A DNA stretch of 25,439 nt from a virus (lineage: Duplodnaviria > Caudoviricetes), in IMG/VR virus record IMGVR_UViG_3300021425_000172, positions 1-25,439 of that record. One strand, given 5' to 3'. The translations under genes and the position numbers were made by a program. The first letter of the stretch is position 1. Each line of letters starts with the position of its first letter. The notes beneath the pieces are model-generated. The model did no database searches, was not told where the DNA came from, and saw nothing but the letters and a program-made list of their open reading frames with translations. Of this stretch, positions 9,559 through 25,312 are shown piece by piece.

Positions 9559-11892
9559 ATGGCAGATTTAACATATACAGTTGATGTAAACACCGCAGGC
9601 GCCCAGCGAGCATTAAGCGGATTAAAATCTAGTATAGGAGGTATTGCATCAGCATTTGCAGGTGCATTTGCATTGACAGAAATAGCAAATGTATCAGCTA
9701 GATTTGAAGATCTTAGAACTACACTTGGTGTTTTATATAAAGATGTAGAAACAGGTGCACAAGCATTTGATCAAATCAAACAATTTGCCACAGAAAGTGT
9801 CTTTAGTGTAGAAGATTTAACCGCTACTGTTGTAAAATTAAAAGCAGCAGGTTTAGAACCTACTATAGACCAATTACGTTTATTTGCTGACGTATCTAGT
9901 GTTAGTGCTGATAGTGTAGGTGCATTACAAGCTATTACAGACTTATTTGCAAGAACTACAGAAGGTGGTTTAGGACTTGAAGACCTAAACAGACTTGCTG
10001 ATAGAGGTATTCCTGTCTTTAAAATCTTAGGTGATAGATTAGGCATATCAAGATTAGAAATATCAAAATTAGGACAAACTGCAGAAGGTGCTCAAGCTAT
10101 ATTAGCAGCACTTACAGAAGGATTAAGTGAAACATTTGATGGCACTAGTGCTGCAAGGGCAGGTAATTTAAGTCAAGCATTTAGTAACCTACAAGATGCA
10201 ATAGCAAATGCTGCTGATGCAATAGGTGAAGGCGGGTTTAATGATGCATTAACTGATGCAATAAACGGTGTTACAACATTTATAGGAAAAAATGAAGCAC
10301 TTATAAAAACTATTGGTGAAGCATTAGGTATTGCAATAAGATTTGCAGCAGATAATTTAAAATATCTTGCAGCTTTAATGGCAGGTGTATTTTCAGCAGC
10401 AGCAGCTGGTAGAATTATTGCTGTTGTAGGTGCTGTTGTACAACTTGCAAAAGGTTTTAGAGACGCCGCAATAGCAGGTACTTTATTACAAGGTGTTACT
10501 GGTATTGGTCTAGCAAAAGTTGCTGCAGGTGTTGCTGCCGCTTTAGGAACTGTAGCACTTATTGAAGAAGCAACAGGTGATGCTAGTGCTAATATTGATC
10601 AATTAAGACGTGATGCAGAAGCTCTTTCAGATGGCCCATTAATTGGTCCACTAACTGCACCTGAAGTACCAGAAATAACTACTGGTGATTCACAATCTCA
10701 ATTACAAATTATAAAAGATCAACAAGATGCAATAACAAGAAGTGCTATTAATTATTTTGATACATATAGAAATGGTGTAAATGATCTTATAAATGCAGTT
10801 GAACAAGAAAGTCAACTTCTTCAATTAACTGAAGAACAAGCCAATGTACAAAAAGGTTTAAATAATTTTTCTCAGCAATATTATAACACTGTACGTCCTT
10901 TACAACAAAAATTAACAGAATTAAAATTAAAAGACACAGATGAAGCTAGAACACAAGCTGCTGAAATAGAACGTCAAATTGGTTTAATTACTGATCTATA
11001 TAATACTAGTAGTGATAGATTAAGAGAGACACTTGAATTACGTGAATTAAATCGTCTTGCAGAAGAAAAATCATTATTACTAACAGAAACAAGATTAAAT
11101 CTAGAATCTGATTTGAATGATTTAGTCAGACAATCGTCAAGAGAATTACGTGATTTATCTTTATCACCTTTAGAACGTGATTTACAACAAATTAATTACG
11201 AAGTTGAAAACACATTAATGGCAAGTATTAATCGCCTTAAACAATCTTGGCGCAATGGCGTATTAACTACTGATGAATATATTGCAGGTATTAAAGCATT
11301 AGAAGAACAAGCTAAACAAGCGGAAGACACATTAAGAGAAAATGCTCTTAAAACACGTGAAACACAACGCTCATTTGCATATGGTTGGAAAGAAGCATTT
11401 GAAAGTTATGCAGAAGATGCAACTAATGCAGCTAAAGCCGCAGAACGTATTTTTGAAAAAACTACCAAAGGCATGGAAGATGCTATTGTAAACTTTGCCA
11501 AGACTGGTAAGTTTGAATTTAAGAGTTTAGTTAATAGTATCTTAGAAGAATTGTTACGCAGTCAAATACAACAACTATTTGCAGATATATTTGGTGTATT
11601 TGGAAGTGGTGGCAGAGGTTCAGGTGGATCTAACTTCTTTAGTGATCTATTTGCAGGCTTCTTTGCAAGTGGCGGATTGATTCCATCAGGTAAGTTTGGT
11701 GTTGTAGGTGAAAATGGTCCTGAACTAGTAAGTGGTCCTGCTCAAGTTACACCAATGACAGGCGGTACTGCTGTTACATATAATATTAATGCTGTTGATG
11801 CAAGTAGTTTCAAATCAATGGTGGCAAGAGATCCAGGATTTATTCACGCAGTGGCACAACAAGGTGCTCGCAAGGTACCAGTAAGGAGATAA
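9559..11892 (+). CDS. Tail tape measure protein
   Basis: 777 aa, Ala-rich helical; EDLNRLADRGIP tape-measure motif; C-terminal FASGG...GVVGENGPELV. Confidence 0.93.
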   Translation: MADLTYTVDVNTAGAQRALSGLKSSIGGIASAFAGAFALTEIANVSARFEDLRTTLGVLYKDVETGAQAFDQIKQFATESVFSVEDLTATVVKLKAAGLEPTIDQLRLFADVSSVSADSVGALQAITDLFARTTEGGLGLEDLNRLADRGIPVFKILGDRLGISRLEISKLGQTAEGAQAILAALTEGLSETFDGTSAARAGNLSQAFSNLQDAIANAADAIGEGGFNDALTDAINGVTTFIGKNEALIKTIGEALGIAIRFAADNLKYLAALMAGVFSAAAAGRIIAVVGAVVQLAKGFRDAAIAGTLLQGVTGIGLAKVAAGVAAALGTVALIEEATGDASANIDQLRRDAEALSDGPLIGPLTAPEVPEITTGDSQSQLQIIKDQQDAITRSAINYFDTYRNGVNDLINAVEQESQLLQLTEEQANVQKGLNNFSQQYYNTVRPLQQKLTELKLKDTDEARTQAAEIERQIGLITDLYNTSSDRLRETLELRELNRLAEEKSLLLTETRLNLESDLNDLVRQSSRELRDLSLSPLERDLQQINYEVENTLMASINRLKQSWRNGVLTTDEYIAGIKALEEQAKQAEDTLRENALKTRETQRSFAYGWKEAFESYAEDATNAAKAAERIFEKTTKGMEDAIVNFAKTGKFEFKSLVNSILEELLRSQIQQLFADIFGVFGSGGRGSGGSNFFSDLFAGFFASGGLIPSGKFGVVGENGPELVSGPAQVTPMTGGTAVTYNINAVDASSFKSMVARDPGFIHAVAQQGARKVPVRR

Positions 11893-17471: not shown

Positions 17472-17864
17472 ATGTCAGCAGCAAGTGATTATCTTGAACT
17501 TAAAGTCCTAGACCACGTTTTAGGCAACACAACTTATACTCCAGCAAGCACACTTTATCTAGGTCTTTGGACCGCAGATGATGGCCTAGAATCAGGTACT
17601 GTTACTTCAGAAGTATCAGGCGGTTCTTATGCACGTCAATCAATTACTTTTGACGCAGCTTCAGGCGGGTCAGCAGACTCAGCGGCTACTGTTACTTTCC
17701 CAACTGCAACTGCAAACTGGGGAACAATTACTCATGTTGCAATCATGGACGCATCTACTTCAGGTAACGTGCTATTCCACGGTTCTGTAACAACTTCTAA
17801 GACAATTGAAAGCGGAGATACTTTCCAAGTATCAGCAGGCAACCTAACAATTAGCCTAGCTTAA
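17472..17864 (+). CDS. Conserved phage virion/tail-associated protein (130 aa)
   Basis: AAGGAG supports ATG17472; SDYLE..VLDH, EVSGGSYARQ, FPTATANWGTITH motifs; capsid-like codon bias suggests high expression. Confidence 0.8.
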   Translation: MSAASDYLELKVLDHVLGNTTYTPASTLYLGLWTADDGLESGTVTSEVSGGSYARQSITFDAASGGSADSAATVTFPTATANWGTITHVAIMDASTSGNVLFHGSVTTSKTIESGDTFQVSAGNLTISLA

Positions 17865-17870
17865 TTTGTT

Positions 17871-17910
17871 ATTAGGGTGTCAGTACAGTGCTGGCACCCT
17901 AATTTTGTTT
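17871..17910 (+). terminator. Long hairpin, terminator or processing site
   Basis: 15-bp stem ATTAGGGTGTCAGTA/TGCTGGCACCCTAAT (two G-U pairs) followed by TTTGTTT. Confidence 0.7.
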
Positions 17911-17930
17911 ACTAACGAGGAGAAAAGCCA

Positions 17931-19319
17931 ATGGCAACTATTGTAACAAGAGCAGGTAAAGGATCACAGCTATCATGGAATGAAGTTGATGCCAACTTTA
18001 CTAATCTTAACGACGACAAAGTTGAATTAACAGACCTAAGTGTCACGCAAAATAGTGCCAGCGGTAATGGCACACTTACATATAGTAATAGTACAGGTGT
18101 GTTTACTTACACTCCACCAGATTTATCAGGTGCAGGCGGACTTTCAAACGTAGTAGAAGATACAACACCACAACTAGGTGGCAGTTTAGATGTAAACAGC
18201 CAACAAATTGTTTCTACTTCAAATGGTAATATTGTACTAGCACCAAACGGTACTGGTAAAGTTAAACTAGACGAAGTGTTTTGGCCTAAACTTCCAACTA
18301 CTACAAGTTCAGGATATACTGGCACAGTTAGTGCTATAGATGATTTTGCATCAACTTTAGAATTAGATAGCACATCAGGATTAAGTGTTGATGATGTTAT
18401 ACAATTTAATGGTTCAGACGTTATTAGTTCAGGCTTATCAGATTACACAGATTATTACATTGTTGATATTGATGGATTTAATATTCAAGTATCGTCTACT
18501 CAAGGTGGCTCAGCAGAAACATTAACAAACGTTGATCCAATATCAGACTTTAACTGGGAAGTTGCAGGCACTACTACAATTGATATTAGTGGTGGTGAAG
18601 TTCTTACTATTGCTGCAAACCAAACACTAAGTTGGAGTACGCCAAGTGCAGGTATTTCAAATCTTGTTGAAGATACAACACCACAACTAGGTGGTAATTT
18701 AGATACTAATACCAAGAATATTGCCTTTGGTGATAGTTCTGTACCAGGTACAGACAATACCTTAATATTTGGTGCAAGCAATGATCTTTTAATATATCAT
18801 AATACTGTTAATAGTGTTATATCAGAAGAAGGCACAGGTAAATTAGAAATTAAAGGTAGTCAAGTAGATATAACTGATACAGCTGGAAATGTTGGTATAA
18901 GAGCAAGTGCAACAGATACTAGACTTTTTCATCTTAGTAGTTTAAGATTACAAACTACAACTACTGGTATTAGATTATGGGATGGTATTGACGGCCAAGG
19001 TCATGAAGTTGCAGATATTCAATTAGAAGATTATGCAGAAACTGTATATTCACTAGGCTCAACTGATTCGCCAACTATTACAGTTTCAAACGGAAATGTA
19101 CAAACGGTAACAATTACAAGTGGATTGTCATTGCCAGCATTTTCAGATGCAGCAACAGGACAAAGTGTAACATTATTAGTTACAGGTTCAGGTACTGCAA
19201 CTGGAACAGCAGCCTATAAATTTGCAGGTGGCAATACCACACTTACTTCTTACAGTGTTGTAAGCGTATTTTATGATGGCACAACTTATTGGGCCTCTAT
19301 TGCAACAGATTTCCAATAA
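17931..19319 (+). CDS. Tail fibre protein 1
   Basis: N-terminal TIVTRAGKGS...DANFTNLN anchor, GVFTYTPPDLS, two EDTTPQLGG.LD.N modules; Gly/Ser/Thr-rich. Confidence 0.8.
   Translation: MATIVTRAGKGSQLSWNEVDANFTNLNDDKVELTDLSVTQNSASGNGTLTYSNSTGVFTYTPPDLSGAGGLSNVVEDTTPQLGGSLDVNSQQIVSTSNGNIVLAPNGTGKVKLDEVFWPKLPTTTSSGYTGTVSAIDDFASTLELDSTSGLSVDDVIQFNGSDVISSGLSDYTDYYIVDIDGFNIQVSSTQGGSAETLTNVDPISDFNWEVAGTTTIDISGGEVLTIAANQTLSWSTPSAGISNLVEDTTPQLGGNLDTNTKNIAFGDSSVPGTDNTLIFGASNDLLIYHNTVNSVISEEGTGKLEIKGSQVDITDTAGNVGIRASATDTRLFHLSSLRLQTTTTGIRLWDGIDGQGHEVADIQLEDYAETVYSLGSTDSPTITVSNGNVQTVTITSGLSLPAFSDAATGQSVTLLVTGSGTATGTAAYKFAGGNTTLTSYSVVSVFYDGTTYWASIATDFQ
18156..18694 (+). repeat. 26-bp exact direct repeat within fibre 1 (18156-18181 and 18669-18694)
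   Basis: GAAGATACAACACCACAACTAGGTGG occurs twice. Confidence 0.85.
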
Positions 19320-21898: not shown

Positions 21899-23464
21899 AT
21901 GGATCAGTATTACGTAGATGAAGGTTACTGGGTAGATGGTTATGCTGGTTATCTAGCTGAAGCTGTTATACGACTTAGTCCTTACATTGACGAAAGTTAT
22001 ATAGATGCAGGTTATTTTGAAGATCAAGGTGTTGTTACAGGACTAAGTATAGATTTTGATGTTGTTATTAATCTAGAAGCAGAAGAATTAACAGCAGTAG
22101 CTTCTATGTCTATTGACATAGGTGTAATTAAACAATTTGATGTTGATTTTGGTGCAGCATTTACTCCAACTATAACTGTAAATGCAATTAAACGTCCTGA
22201 TGTATTTGTAGAAAGTGCGTTTACACAAACTGCTGATGTTAATATTACAGCAAGTGCAGAAAGTCTACTTGAATACTTTGCAAATCTAGATGCCCAGGCC
22301 GCAAGATTGCGCAGTATTTCTGAAACTCTAGACGCACAATTCAATCAATCAGCGGCAGGTACTCTTACTAAAGATTACTCCGCTGATTTTGCATCTGTAG
22401 CCTCTATAAATGCAGATGTAACACGCATACACCCAGGTGCAGCTACATTTGATAGTGCATTTACACAATCAGCAACAGGTGATAAATTTAAAGGCCTAGT
22501 AGGTGAACAATTAGATAGTGCATTTACAATAGATCTAGTATTAGGTGTAACTGTTGACATTTCACCAGCTACATTTAGCAGTGCATTTACACAAACAGCA
22601 ACAGGCGTAAGAATACACCTAGGTGCAGCTACATTTGATAGTGCATTTACACAAACTACAGATGTTGTTAAAACTACAGATACAAGTTCTAATCTAAGTA
22701 GTGCTGCAACATTAGCAATAGATCCATTCCGTATTGTAGAAGGTGCCGCTAACTTTGGTGCAGCGTTTACTCCAACCTTAACAGTAGAAGCAATTAAACG
22801 TCCAATTGTATACTTAGAAAGTGCATTTACACAAAATGCTGATATAAGTGTTATACCAGCTGGACAAGCATTGCTTGACAGTGCATTCTCAATTAGTGCA
22901 GATGCAAATATTATAAAAGGTTATGATGCAACATTTGCAAGTGCGTTTACACAAACTGCTGATGCAAGTCGCATTAGAGGTTATGATGCAACATTTGCAA
23001 GTGCATTTACACAAACAGCAACAGTAGGATTCTTAGTTAATCCTGGTACTAATTTTGGTGATGATCCTGAATTCCCAGATACATTACATTTTGAATTTAC
23101 ACAAAGTGCAAGTAGCACTATTGTTACAGAATTAGATGTTGAATTTACTGCTATTGCAAGTATTGTTAATGTAGAACCAACAATTATTAAACCAATAGGT
23201 GCTACATTAAATGCAGCATTTACACAAGACATTACATCTACTAGAATAAGATTTAGTAGTGTAACATTAGATGCAGAATTTACACAGTCTGCAAGCATAG
23301 GATATATTGTTGATGCAAACATTGCATTAAACAATGTATTTGATGCTAATATTATTATTAGGACTATACATCCTGAACATTTTGTGTATACGATACCAAG
23401 AGAATCTCGTGGATATACCATTCATGAGGAAACAAGAATTTACACTATACAAGGAGCAAGCTAA
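21899..23464 (+). CDS. Repeat-rich structural protein (~20-aa F.SAFTQ.A repeats)
   Basis: Many SAFTQ-type units; DNA repeats 22435-22468/22621-22654 and 22918-22956/22978-23016. Confidence 0.8.
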   Translation: MDQYYVDEGYWVDGYAGYLAEAVIRLSPYIDESYIDAGYFEDQGVVTGLSIDFDVVINLEAEELTAVASMSIDIGVIKQFDVDFGAAFTPTITVNAIKRPDVFVESAFTQTADVNITASAESLLEYFANLDAQAARLRSISETLDAQFNQSAAGTLTKDYSADFASVASINADVTRIHPGAATFDSAFTQSATGDKFKGLVGEQLDSAFTIDLVLGVTVDISPATFSSAFTQTATGVRIHLGAATFDSAFTQTTDVVKTTDTSSNLSSAATLAIDPFRIVEGAANFGAAFTPTLTVEAIKRPIVYLESAFTQNADISVIPAGQALLDSAFSISADANIIKGYDATFASAFTQTADASRIRGYDATFASAFTQTATVGFLVNPGTNFGDDPEFPDTLHFEFTQSASSTIVTELDVEFTAIASIVNVEPTIIKPIGATLNAAFTQDITSTRIRFSSVTLDAEFTQSASIGYIVDANIALNNVFDANIIIRTIHPEHFVYTIPRESRGYTIHEETRIYTIQGAS

Positions 23465-23466
23465 CC

Positions 23467-23805
23467 ATGGCTATCAACAGAACTGGTTTTAACCAAACAA
23501 ACTATGGGCTTGACATAGATAAAGATGTTGAAGCCCAATTAACTTATACCTTTAACTGGAGTGAATGGCTACCTACATCAGATACCATTGCAACAGTAGA
23601 ATATTCAGTTGCTGCAAGACGTAATGACCCAACACCTGTTACTATTGTTTCAGAAGGCATTACTGATGCTAACACTGACACTTATGTAGAATTATCAGGT
23701 GGACAAGCAAATAAAACTTATGTAGTTACATGCAAAGTGACCACAAACGACGGTCTCATTGATCGTCGTTCTTTTCGTTTAAACGTAGTTAATAGGAGTG
23801 CATAA
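23467..23805 (+). CDS. Putative Ig-like fibre/tail adaptor protein
   Basis: DKD..A.L.Y.F.WSEWL...DTI ... LSGG....Y.VTC.VTT..G....RSF pattern. Confidence 0.6.
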   Translation: MAINRTGFNQTNYGLDIDKDVEAQLTYTFNWSEWLPTSDTIATVEYSVAARRNDPTPVTIVSEGITDANTDTYVELSGGQANKTYVVTCKVTTNDGLIDRRSFRLNVVNRSA

Positions 23806-24088: not shown

Positions 24089-24379
24089 ATGGACAAGACA
24101 ATACCACCAGAAATTGCACAACGACTTAAAAAAAATAGAAAAGGCAACATAACTTGTGAGCCAAAAGCTATAAATTTTTGTGAAGACTGTGGTAAAGATA
24201 TTGGTGGCCAGCACAGAATATGTAAGGCGCAGGTTAGTAATAGAGTTGAAAAACATTGGCACATAAGATGTAATATATGCAACCTAATACAAAATCCTCA
24301 TACCAAAAAGTATGAATTTAACAGTTGGGAAGACAAACAAGCCTATTTAAAAGGGGAAAATGATAATAAAGATAAATAA
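24089..24379 (+). CDS. Putative zinc-finger protein (96 aa)
   Basis: CEDC ... CNIC; TTAAATA (24077-24083) 5 nt upstream; no SD. Confidence 0.7.
   Translation: MDKTIPPEIAQRLKKNRKGNITCEPKAINFCEDCGKDIGGQHRICKAQVSNRVEKHWHIRCNICNLIQNPHTKKYEFNSWEDKQAYLKGENDNKDK
24372..24378 (+). promoter_or_regulatory. T4-type late promoter motif ATAAATA driving candidate sRNA 2
   Basis: Overlaps the stop codon of the zinc-finger gene; the first RNA stem begins 5 nt downstream. Confidence 0.6.
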
Positions 24380-24382
24380 TAT

Positions 24383-24556
24383 TGTAAGCAGTGAAGCTAG
24401 TTTCCATTAAACTTTATCTTTATTGCCATTTAGAATGAGTTCCTATATAGGTGATCTGCTTACACTTTATATCATAACAGTTCTGACATGTATTGATATA
24501 ATTTTATTCCTATTATGACTTTAAACCCCCAGCGATAACCTCAAAGGGGGTTTTTT
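24383..24556 (+). ncRNA. Candidate multi-loop antisense RNA 2 (~175 nt)
   Basis: Stems TGTAAGCAG/CTGCTTACA (24383-24391/24456-24464) and TTATATCA/TGATATAA (24467-24474/24494-24501), then a terminator. Loops are complementary to translation-start regions. Confidence 0.65.
24523..24556 (+). terminator. Rho-independent terminator
   Basis: AAACCCCC, 15-nt loop, GGGGGTTTTTT. Confidence 0.75.
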
Positions 24557-24560
24557 CTAG

Positions 24561-24605
24561 TTGACAAACCTAAAAAATGGTGTTATTATACTAAAGAGAT
24601 AAATA
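24561..24605 (+). promoter_or_regulatory. Sigma70 promoter P3 followed by ATAAATA
   Basis: TTGACA (24561-24566), 17 nt, TATTAT (24584-24589) with extended -10 TG; ATAAATA at 24599-24605. Confidence 0.8.
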
Positions 24606-24625: not shown

Positions 24626-24925
24626 ATGAAAGCACAAGACAGAGAACAACAGCAATTGATTGGTTATTGGGCAAAGACCCAAGGCTTTAGTCTCAAGGCC
24701 TTAGAACGTACAGATTTATCTACACTACAGGCATTGCGTTTGGCATCAAACTGTTTAAAACAAAGACAGTTTCTTAACCAACATGACATTACTACATTTG
24801 CAACATACATAAACAATTTTCGCACAGGCAAAACTATTAATAAGGCACATACCGCAGGCGTATTTCGCAAGGCTAGACGACTACAACGTTCACAGGCAAA
24901 GACCACGAGAAAAGCAACTCGTTAA
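24626..24925 (+). CDS. Hypothetical basic protein (99 aa)
   Basis: AGGAAGG RBS; Arg/Lys-rich C-terminus; has its own promoter; followed by a structured non-coding tract. Confidence 0.8.
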   Translation: MKAQDREQQQLIGYWAKTQGFSLKALERTDLSTLQALRLASNCLKQRQFLNQHDITTFATYINNFRTGKTINKAHTAGVFRKARRLQRSQAKTTRKATR

Positions 24926-24940: not shown

Positions 24941-25190
24941 CCCTAGTTGTAATATTGACGGCTAATGACCTAGGTGTGTTAGATGTTGCTGATACAGCAT
25001 CTAATTATACAGGGCCGCAGATTTGCTCACTACATTCAAGGAAACTTATGTAGCAGAGTTGGAAGTTTCAATGCATCCGTCTTCCATAAAATCTGTATCA
25101 GTCGTGTGTGAGAGTTCAAGACACACGAGACGGCTATAGTAAGAGTGTAGAAGCACTATTTTTTTTGTTTCTCCTCTTACTATAGCCGTC
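24941..25190 (+). ncRNA. Highly structured non-coding element (candidate ncRNA or origin)
   Basis: Nested stems with G-U pairs, a GAAA tetraloop, and a perfect 17-bp stem at 25129-25145/25174-25190. Confidence 0.5.
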
Positions 25191-25312
25191 GTATGACTTC
25201 AAGTTCAAGTTAAAATTAATTGTTTAATATCACTTGTTAGTTTGAGCGATAGCAAACATGAGCTCTGATAAGAGCGAATACACTTAACGCAGTTAAGTGT
25301 CTTGATTGTTTG

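Follow-up and report, generated by a model that had tools for sequence, protein, structure and literature searches.

A conserved pseudoknotted RNA of aquatic phages and bacterial islands, a candidate replication primer in putative satellites of T4-like phages

Immediately downstream of a small basic protein gene, a 25,439-nt stretch of viral DNA (the window) carries an element of about 270 nt whose pseudoknotted fold is conserved, and comparison of its relatives supports the view that it is a novel structured RNA. Our preferred reading, in which our confidence is a little better than even, is that this RNA would serve as a self-anchoring, ColE1-like primer origin of satellites of T4-like phages. 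A preliminary description of the same DNA had suggested two roles, a noncoding RNA bound by the 99-aa basic protein or a replication primer RNA, and it is the second that appears to gain most support. The primer role is favored because of a repeat shared by the RNA and the DNA that follows it, a box further downstream, and the replicase-less genomes in which the element resides.

The 250-nt segment at 24941 to 25190 has a folding energy of −91.5 kcal/mol (z = −7.1) that none of 200 shuffles equaled; its reverse strand reaches −76 kcal/mol (z = −5.3). A rough scan of 101 intervals of the genome, with eight shuffles each, gave the lowest z value at 25001 to 25250. Low values (−5.6 to −7.7, from eight shuffles only) were also seen at 17751 to 18000, 22251 to 22500, and 23251 to 23500; one of these intervals holds a terminator-like hairpin (17865 to 17930), and the others correspond to a repetitive tail gene. 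Covariation, which had been proposed as a check, was assessed with pair counts from 63 relatives (alignment A4) and mutual information from 83 members. In a structure of 49 pairs, 89.5% of the cells were paired across the 63 sequences, and 37 pairs showed two-sided changes. None of 500 shuffles reached the observed level and slid controls paired at 34 to 48%, although these controls are lenient because the structure was chosen on the same 63 sequences. The 250-nt structured element previously described folds far better than chance and covaries, but several of its helices were wrong, and the earlier description had overlooked the pseudoknot and the repeat as well as the T4-type promoter and the signals of DNA type downstream. 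The element also reaches 3′ past 25190, to about 25300.

The consensus layout consists of P1, P2, a pseudoknot (pk1), a three-way junction of P3, P4, and P5, and two further hairpins, P7 and P8, with many pair types at each of P1, P5, and pk1. All of the previously quoted motifs that were checked are in place, and the differences lie in what pairs with what. P1 (24942 to 24946 with 24970 to 24974, CCTAG/CTAGG) pairs at 99.7%, each of its five pairs showing two-sided changes, and closes a near-invariant 23-nt loop that includes CGGC at 24959 to 24962. It supplants a proposed TAGTTGT/ACGGCTA helix, the first pair of which forms in 5% of sequences and the other columns of which are near-invariant; a CCCT/AGGG closing helix is likewise unsupported, as pairing at three of the four columns is limited to 29 to 48% of sequences. 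P2 (24979 to 25004; 79.7% paired, six of six pairs covarying) retains the TTAGAT/ATCTAA stem drawn before but not its GCTG-ATA-CAGC tip, the bases of which form pk1 instead. The P2 loop (24989 to 24995) is the 5′ strand of pk1 and 25095 to 25101 is its 3′ strand; the pseudoknot is 90.9% paired, with two-sided changes at all seven pairs. Within the three-way junction (25019 to 25101), the inner six of the pairs assigned earlier stand as P3 (25019 to 25024 with 25089 to 25094), but the outer ones are displaced by pk1. The CTACAT..AAG-GAAA-CTT-ATGTAG arm, P4 (25030 to 25053), with its GNRA-type loop, is optional, being missing in many members, and the TGGAAG/CTTCCA arm, P5 (25060 to 25065 with 25081 to 25086), is backed by the 63 relatives and has a conserved 15-nt loop. 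The relatives also back the hairpin placed at 25102 to 25128, here P7 (25103 to 25127; 88% paired, six of six pairs covarying), and the base of the long hairpin P8 (25129 to 25190), but the 17-bp stem that P8 forms in the window varies in length among them.

The 3′ strand of P8 contains an invariant GCCGTC. Two sequences are near-invariant, GWCGGCTA of the P1 loop and TAGCCGTC, and their local partner varies. The P1-loop CGGC has two invariant GCCG partners, at 25014 and 25185; the GCCG at 25014 to 25017 is a candidate for a second pseudoknot, 99.6% paired and never varying, and hence without covariation evidence. The two alternative partners suggested in the earlier description, which would make these pairings mutually exclusive, seem plausible, with this GCCG as a third, and since the strands are invariant, covariation does not choose among them. 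In marine members a hairpin with a U-run is nested in P8. The U-run occurs only in some clades and is missing in many freshwater members, and a terminator inside P8 was rejected as a family-wide feature.

An Rfam search, another of the proposed checks, gave nothing at gathering score in the window and nothing at the element in seven bacterial loci; Rfam 15 holds no such family, and four matches at E values of 0.7 to 3.4 were set aside as chance. The earlier judgment that the element is not a tRNA, tmRNA, RNase P, or intron was borne out: models of these RNAs, of group I and II introns, and of known ribozymes left it unmatched, and no ribozyme or intron family matched it even at an E value of ≤10. 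In neighboring DNA, the same search tool did detect tRNAs and a genuine group I intron. Polynucleobacter-1 (RF01718) is likewise an orphan structured RNA of freshwater Burkholderiales (PMC2864571), but its consensus sequence is different. It was rejected as a match: none of 11 sequences (the window, five relatives, and five Polynucleobacter genomes with the element) scored above its gathering cutoff of 37 bits, and the best score, 14.7 bits, fell at a place without the element. Polynucleobacter-1 is at most a parallel system. We found no description of the element in the literature; its motifs are absent from the searchable supplements of Fremin 2023 (PMC10690425), the alignment archives and three large files of which lay outside the search and may list it. 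Even if the primer reading is wrong, the element represents a well-supported RNA family missing from Rfam 15.

Protein and motif scans, with three viral patterns, a single metagenome scan, and a single genome scan, were combined with nhmmer to find members. At least 124 related loci match the element profile among at least 167 distinct viral and metagenome anchor matches, 43 of the 167 being chance; the metagenome scan points to about 530 stretches in all. The genome scan gave 53 matches, 29 of them real and, by title, nearly all from freshwater Betaproteobacteria (Polynucleobacter, Limnohabitans, Oxalobacteraceae, Methylophilaceae, and others). The remaining 24 are chance motif matches in Prochlorococcus (22), Limnothrix, and Nanopelagicus. 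The member set is biased, as all scans rest on conserved motifs, and counts over members are non-independent, as members are related. Loci L202 (marginal), L009 (divergent middle), and L122 and L282 (3′ anchor not found) were dropped before counting, as were near-duplicates. L009, on the minus strand of the phage genome G002 (1840 to 2330), is a divergent variant with an unrelated middle that keeps the P1-loop motif, the 3′ motif, and the downstream hairpin.

The 29 bacterial loci lie in islands that carry the basic gene (26 loci), a divergently oriented DUF6641 gene (23), a small tyrosine recombinase (22), a large integrase (15), and a clamp-loader-like ATPase (5); no capsid family is among the genes that the islands share. 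Eight islands were tested for end repeats, which were 45- to 46-nt copies of a tRNA end in three (spanning 6.4 to 8.0 kb), 17 nt in two, 10 nt in one, and none in two. An integrase with att sites at a tRNA was found in islands only and not in the window, and the small tyrosine recombinase is absent from the six phage genomes examined (the window and five relatives). Phages and islands share the basic gene, the element, the downstream tract, and little else, and the gene and element that they have in common point to a function that both need, such as replication. The DUF6641 gene, represented by 9023 to 9682 in L274 and found at 22 other loci, is not mentioned in the literature searched. The islands at L262 (13009 to 13677) and L306 (13409 to 14206) encode an ATPase, either a clamp-loader-like one of 223 aa (phrog_168) or one of phrog_1250, that is a possible tool to load or jam the sliding clamp of a helper. 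Locus L256, in Polynucleobacter sp. 71A-WALBACH, has the element behind a different, 379-aa gene in the usual slot of the basic gene, and a group I intron (RF00028, 54.5 bits; 11337 to 11565, minus strand) at the island edge, where ARAGORN finds no tRNA.

The window itself is a complete circular phage genome of 25,312 bp after removal of a 127-nt terminal repeat (CheckV: direct terminal repeats, 100% complete). All of its credible genes are on the plus strand, and ORF profile scans identified small and large terminase, scaffold, major head, and tail proteins. Among the 26 window ORFs scanned there was no match to a polymerase, primase, helicase, integrase, or sigma factor (best such E value, 0.059) and none to an endolysin. 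Five near-complete relatives (28.8 to 32.5 kb; CheckV completeness, 93 to 100%) also encode virions. At an E value of ≤1e-5, no polymerase, primase, helicase, or sigma factor was found in 81 ORFs, comprising 13 of the 26 from the window and 68 of the 190 listed for these relatives, the latter picked as non-structural and no longer than 480 aa; the other 13 window ORFs gave no significant match of this kind, and Toprim was found in none of the five relatives. There is no close isolate phage (TerL identity, at most 46%), and the element is absent from isolate phages (blastn, 50,697 records). A tail fiber of the window matches large aquatic myoviruses, and the window genome is possibly a virion-coding satellite of a T4-like phage. 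In relatives G002 to G005 (loci L313 to L320), methyltransferase, HNH, and further accessory genes of the sort usual in large aquatic phages occur in blocks, some on the opposite strand behind TAAATA boxes.

T4 late promoters have an 8-bp box starting at −13 and no −35 element (PMC2988020), and the late promoter sequence of cyanomyoviruses is NATAAATA (PMC2984593). A TAAATA box, the core of T4-type late promoters, precedes the basic gene on the plus strand of the window (24600 to 24605), at −26 from its start. In 24 of 26 island copies, and in most freshwater contigs, TAAATA starts exactly at −11. With the AUG as the probable transcription start, this position agrees with that of a T4-type late promoter, an TATAAATA-like box at −13 to −6 with no −35 element. 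In 50 kb of the T4-like pelagiphage HTVC008M (62 starts examined), TAAATA is at −11 in 9 of the 19 genes that it precedes. The plus strand of the window has 12 TAAATA sequences, 9 of them within 85 nt before a start codon, 1 heading a candidate small RNA, and 2 inside genes. Transcription of the element would be switched on by a coinfecting T4-like phage; we infer such a helper because no sigma factor was found in the elements. In the window, a sigma-70-like promoter (TTGACA-17-TATTAT with a TG extension; 11 of 12 consensus matches) also lies upstream of the basic gene on the plus strand, at 24561 to 24589, and TTGAC occurs at −65 to −68 in the window, L001, L005, and L007 and is mostly absent in freshwater members.

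The candidate small RNA (24373 to 24560, plus strand) lies between the TAAATA of 24373 to 24378 and a terminator-like hairpin (24537 to 24552) with a T run. Its segment at 24413 to 24427 is complementary over 15 nt, 13 of them Watson-Crick, to the leader and start codon of the basic gene, and the pairing is accompanied by matching changes in L001, L002, L005, L007, and L008. The antisense signal is limited, appearing in 9 of 18 leadered members versus 24% of cross-pairs and in none of 53 leaderless ones. On this complementarity, the RNA would be an antisense brake on the basic gene in the clade of the window. Above-background pairing is also seen between this RNA and SD-plus-ATGGC starts, both of the window's own genes and of HTVC008M late genes.

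The basic gene (24626 to 24925, plus strand) encodes a 99-aa, five-helix protein of net charge +15 (AlphaFold pLDDT, 89.6) and always lies just upstream of the element, with which it is presumably cotranscribed. Among 57 upstream ORFs, 49 fall in one basic helical family, 7 are of a different basic type, and 1, that of L056, lacks basic character and was probably picked in error; two unrelated families of basic proteins occupy the same slot. The 99-aa protein has no match in Pfam, PDB, or BFVD, and fold searches with it gave generic helical bundles only (Z ≤ 6.8), a result compatible with the existence of a relative. An Atlas lead to the gp59 helicase loader (0.88; 107 of 256 features) found no support in hhalign (probability, 0.1 against two gp59 sequences) or among the fold matches listed. 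Further upstream, a 96-aa four-cysteine (zinc-finger-like) protein, conserved in seven marine members, is encoded at 24089 to 24379.

The 3′ part of the P7 loop, R1 (25113 to 25120), recurs identically on the same strand as R2 (25202 to 25209), which in members lies 12 to 20 nt after the last helix. Being identical to R2, the loop could pair with the template strand of R2, its predicted site. R1 and R2 share a block of at least 6 nt in 69 of 83 members, versus 19% of 830 cross-pairs; the block occurs only at those two places, and no complementary third strand exists within 700 nt in the 69 members. It varies widely within one protein family, and YCAAG is common to two unrelated protein families, so the repeat fits nucleic acid pairing better than protein-read iterons, a reading that we disfavor. 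The divergent L009 keeps a repeat of its own. In the flanks (70 of 104 members parsed), mismatches of G in R1 with A in R2 occur 47 times and the reverse never, as rG-dT wobble would allow; in total, 78 positions are wobble-compatible, whereas shuffles average 50 (maximum, 68). Against wobble, C in R1 with T in R2, which is a mismatch, occurs 51 times versus 31 for T with C, and the G/A bias could alternatively reflect pairing, noted by eye, of R1 G's with C's just before R2. Overall complementarity between R1 and R2 is not above that of cross-pairs (28 of 83 versus 35%). The predicted hybrid of R1 with the template is short, at 6 to 9 bp.

R2 is followed on the plus strand by an A+T-rich, G-poor tract (25210 to 25240), the predicted site of unwinding and of the switch from RNA to DNA; in the family, the G fraction is 0.08 and the A+T fraction 0.66 at 20 to 40 nt after the last helix. 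Next comes a GAGCG-N-AGC box (25244 to 25253), a GC-G..A-GC mini-hairpin that resembles the primosome assembly region of ColE1 and phiX174. GC-G..A-GC mini-hairpins are stable as DNA. Downstream counts use 81 members, as 23 of 104 had less than 150 nt downstream. The GAGCG-N-AGCG box is on the plus strand in 60 of the 81, on the minus strand in 3, against a count of 0.6 in shuffles, by a post hoc pattern that was written after the family had been seen and widened to catch phiX174. Box loops are all of the G..A form, and 43 of 67 are not GNRA. Further on, a hairpin at 25280 to 25300 (plus strand) has a DNA-type C-GCA-G triloop, and C-GNA-G hairpins occur on the plus strand in 41 and on the minus strand in 19 of the 81 members, with about 2 in shuffles. 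From the core to this downstream tract, loops shift from RNA-like to DNA-like types, in keeping with the primer reading. No conserved antisense promoter lies over the RNA (6 minus-strand TAAATA sequences in 78 members; in the window, one weak sigma-70 site with 9 of 12 matches), and GC skew gives no clear switch.

These features can be assembled into a model for the primer. The late sigma factor of the helper, of the gp55 type, would read the TAAATA box and so transcribe the basic gene and the RNA, with the host sigma-70 promoter as a second route in marine members. The RNA would fold during synthesis, and its single-stranded P7 loop would pair with the template strand of R2 behind the polymerase, nucleating a persistent R-loop. 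The hybrid would be trimmed or terminated in the A+T-rich tract near 25210 to 25240, and its 3′ end would prime the leading strand. The displaced plus strand would then expose the GC-G..A-GC and C-GNA-G DNA hairpins for helicase and primase loading by host PriA or by helper gp59/gp41. The basic protein may help to fold or protect the hybrid, and in the clade of the window the upstream small RNA may limit its translation as a control of copy number or timing.

The same features have been weighed against other readings. In one, which we think unlikely, the RNA is released and, together with the basic protein, works in trans as a ribonucleoprotein whose target might be, for instance, the helper phage or the machinery of the host; R1 and R2 would then be twin protein sites or a pseudo-symmetric RNA module. 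The fixed linkage to the basic protein, the compact pseudoknotted core with its invariant loops, and the potential of R1 G's to pair with the C's before R2 would all suit such a particle. It leaves unexplained, however, how replicase-less genomes replicate and why hairpins of DNA type, on either strand, immediately follow the RNA, and the same repeat block accompanies unrelated proteins.

Whether the folded polymer is RNA at all bears on a second reading, that the whole region acts as single-stranded DNA, as an origin or a substrate for packaging or recombination. G-U pairs and a GNRA loop had been taken as a sign of RNA. G-U outnumber A-C pairs by 230 to 86, and the plus strand folds better in 52 of the first 60 members; the G-U excess fixes the strand but not the polymer, as G-T pairs and strand bias do not separate RNA from DNA. 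The DNA-type loops downstream, and the small tyrosine recombinase that follows in 22 of the 29 island loci, would also fit DNA. Yet the commonest loops of the core include GNRA types and none of the C-GNA-G type, the core sits on one strand directly behind a promoter and an ORF, and no phage genome among the six has the recombinase. We regard this reading as improbable.

Maturation of the transcript by a ribozyme activity of the element, through self-cleavage or self-splicing that possibly also makes the 3′ end of the primer, would be compatible with the primer model, and the double-pseudoknot-like core with invariant unpaired residues is suggestive of a ribozyme; given the lack of any ribozyme or intron family match at an E value of ≤10 and of an exon context, we consider it quite improbable. 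Least probable of all is a cis-acting, put-like antiterminator or attenuator controlling polymerase run-through into the downstream genes, for although, on the circle, the window genes all follow the element on a single strand, and the nested hairpin with its U-run and the mutually exclusive pairings would suit such a switch, the downstream genes have their own TAAATA boxes and differ between members, and many freshwater members have no U-run.

A broader proposal, which we offer tentatively and rate below an even chance, is that these are widespread parasites of T4-like myoviruses, ranging from islands of 6 to 8 kb to tailed phages of 25 to 32 kb, with no replicase or sigma factor of their own. 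They would sense the late sigma factor of the helper at one promoter, and their transcript would anchor itself through the coevolving repeat and prime replication, the repeat setting incompatibility and the small antisense RNA setting timing. If the primer reading is right, nature would have arrived at RNA-primed replication a second time, by a route unrelated to that of ColE1, and the element would explain how abundant small aquatic phages without replication genes have their DNA copied. Cultured Polynucleobacter and Limnohabitans strains would then harbor satellites of T4-like myoviruses, among them ones that build virions themselves, and the replicon would switch on only upon T4-like infection.

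The closest parallel is with ColE1 (NC_001371), in which G6 runs lie at 928 to 933 and 1175 to 1180, an A5 run at 1193 to 1197, and the box at 1332 and 1349. These boxes are 135 to 155 nt past the A5 run on the RNA II strand, and the pattern has two more matches elsewhere (four in 6,646 bp); in its widened form it also occurs in the F-G intergenic region of phiX174. We take the ColE1 and phiX174 boxes to be functional primosome sites, and the ColE1 G run presumably pairs with the template and anchors a persistent hybrid. Priming by RNA II exposes a primosome site downstream that recruits PriA (PMC3640518). With the element read as a primer, both systems would have a long folded transcript running into the origin without a replicase gene, a short sequence that occurs once in a loop upstream and again close to the switch point (a likeness of pattern only), GAGCG-N-AGCG boxes downstream on the displaced strand, and a small helical protein and antisense control nearby. 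The element differs in having no sequence or fold likeness to the ColE1 primer, about half its length, and a pseudoknot; no Rfam match to RNA II or RNA I was found at the element. The G run of ColE1 is fixed, whereas the repeat of the element is variable and coevolving. The element has a T4-type late promoter with a protein gene upstream on what is presumably the same transcript, and its candidate antisense RNA has a gene of its own and would target the protein leader rather than overlap the primer 5′ end. ColE1 is a plasmid, whereas the element resides in phages and islands, and blastn with an island copy found no match in 72,556 plasmids. The most likely reading, with the scales tipped slightly in its favor, is that the element works like the ColE1 primer but is not a member of the ColE1 family.

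The oriF and oriG origins of T4 offer a second parallel, a promoter and then a transcript and then an A+T-rich unwinding tract, with the R-loop RNA priming the T4 replisome (PMC3016281). They use middle promoters and require no specific RNA sequence or fold, whereas the fold of the element is conserved, its promoter is of the late type, and it would reside in a parasite. The same source reports that the T4 replisome copies any preformed R-loop in an unwinding element and, against the primer reading, that T4 UvsW unwinds R-loops late. Since the ColE1 site recruits PriA and the T4 replisome uses preformed R-loops, host and helper enzymes could both serve.

Phage satellites such as P4, PICI, PLE, and tycheposons are small tRNA-integrated islands tied to the late program of a helper, and PLE uses a small RNA. 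The islands described here resemble them in having an integrase and att repeats at a tRNA. To our knowledge, known phage satellites as a rule encode their own Rep or primase, whereas none was found in these elements. Members of the window type differ further in that they encode the entire virion; what they would take from the helper is transcription and replication, not structure.
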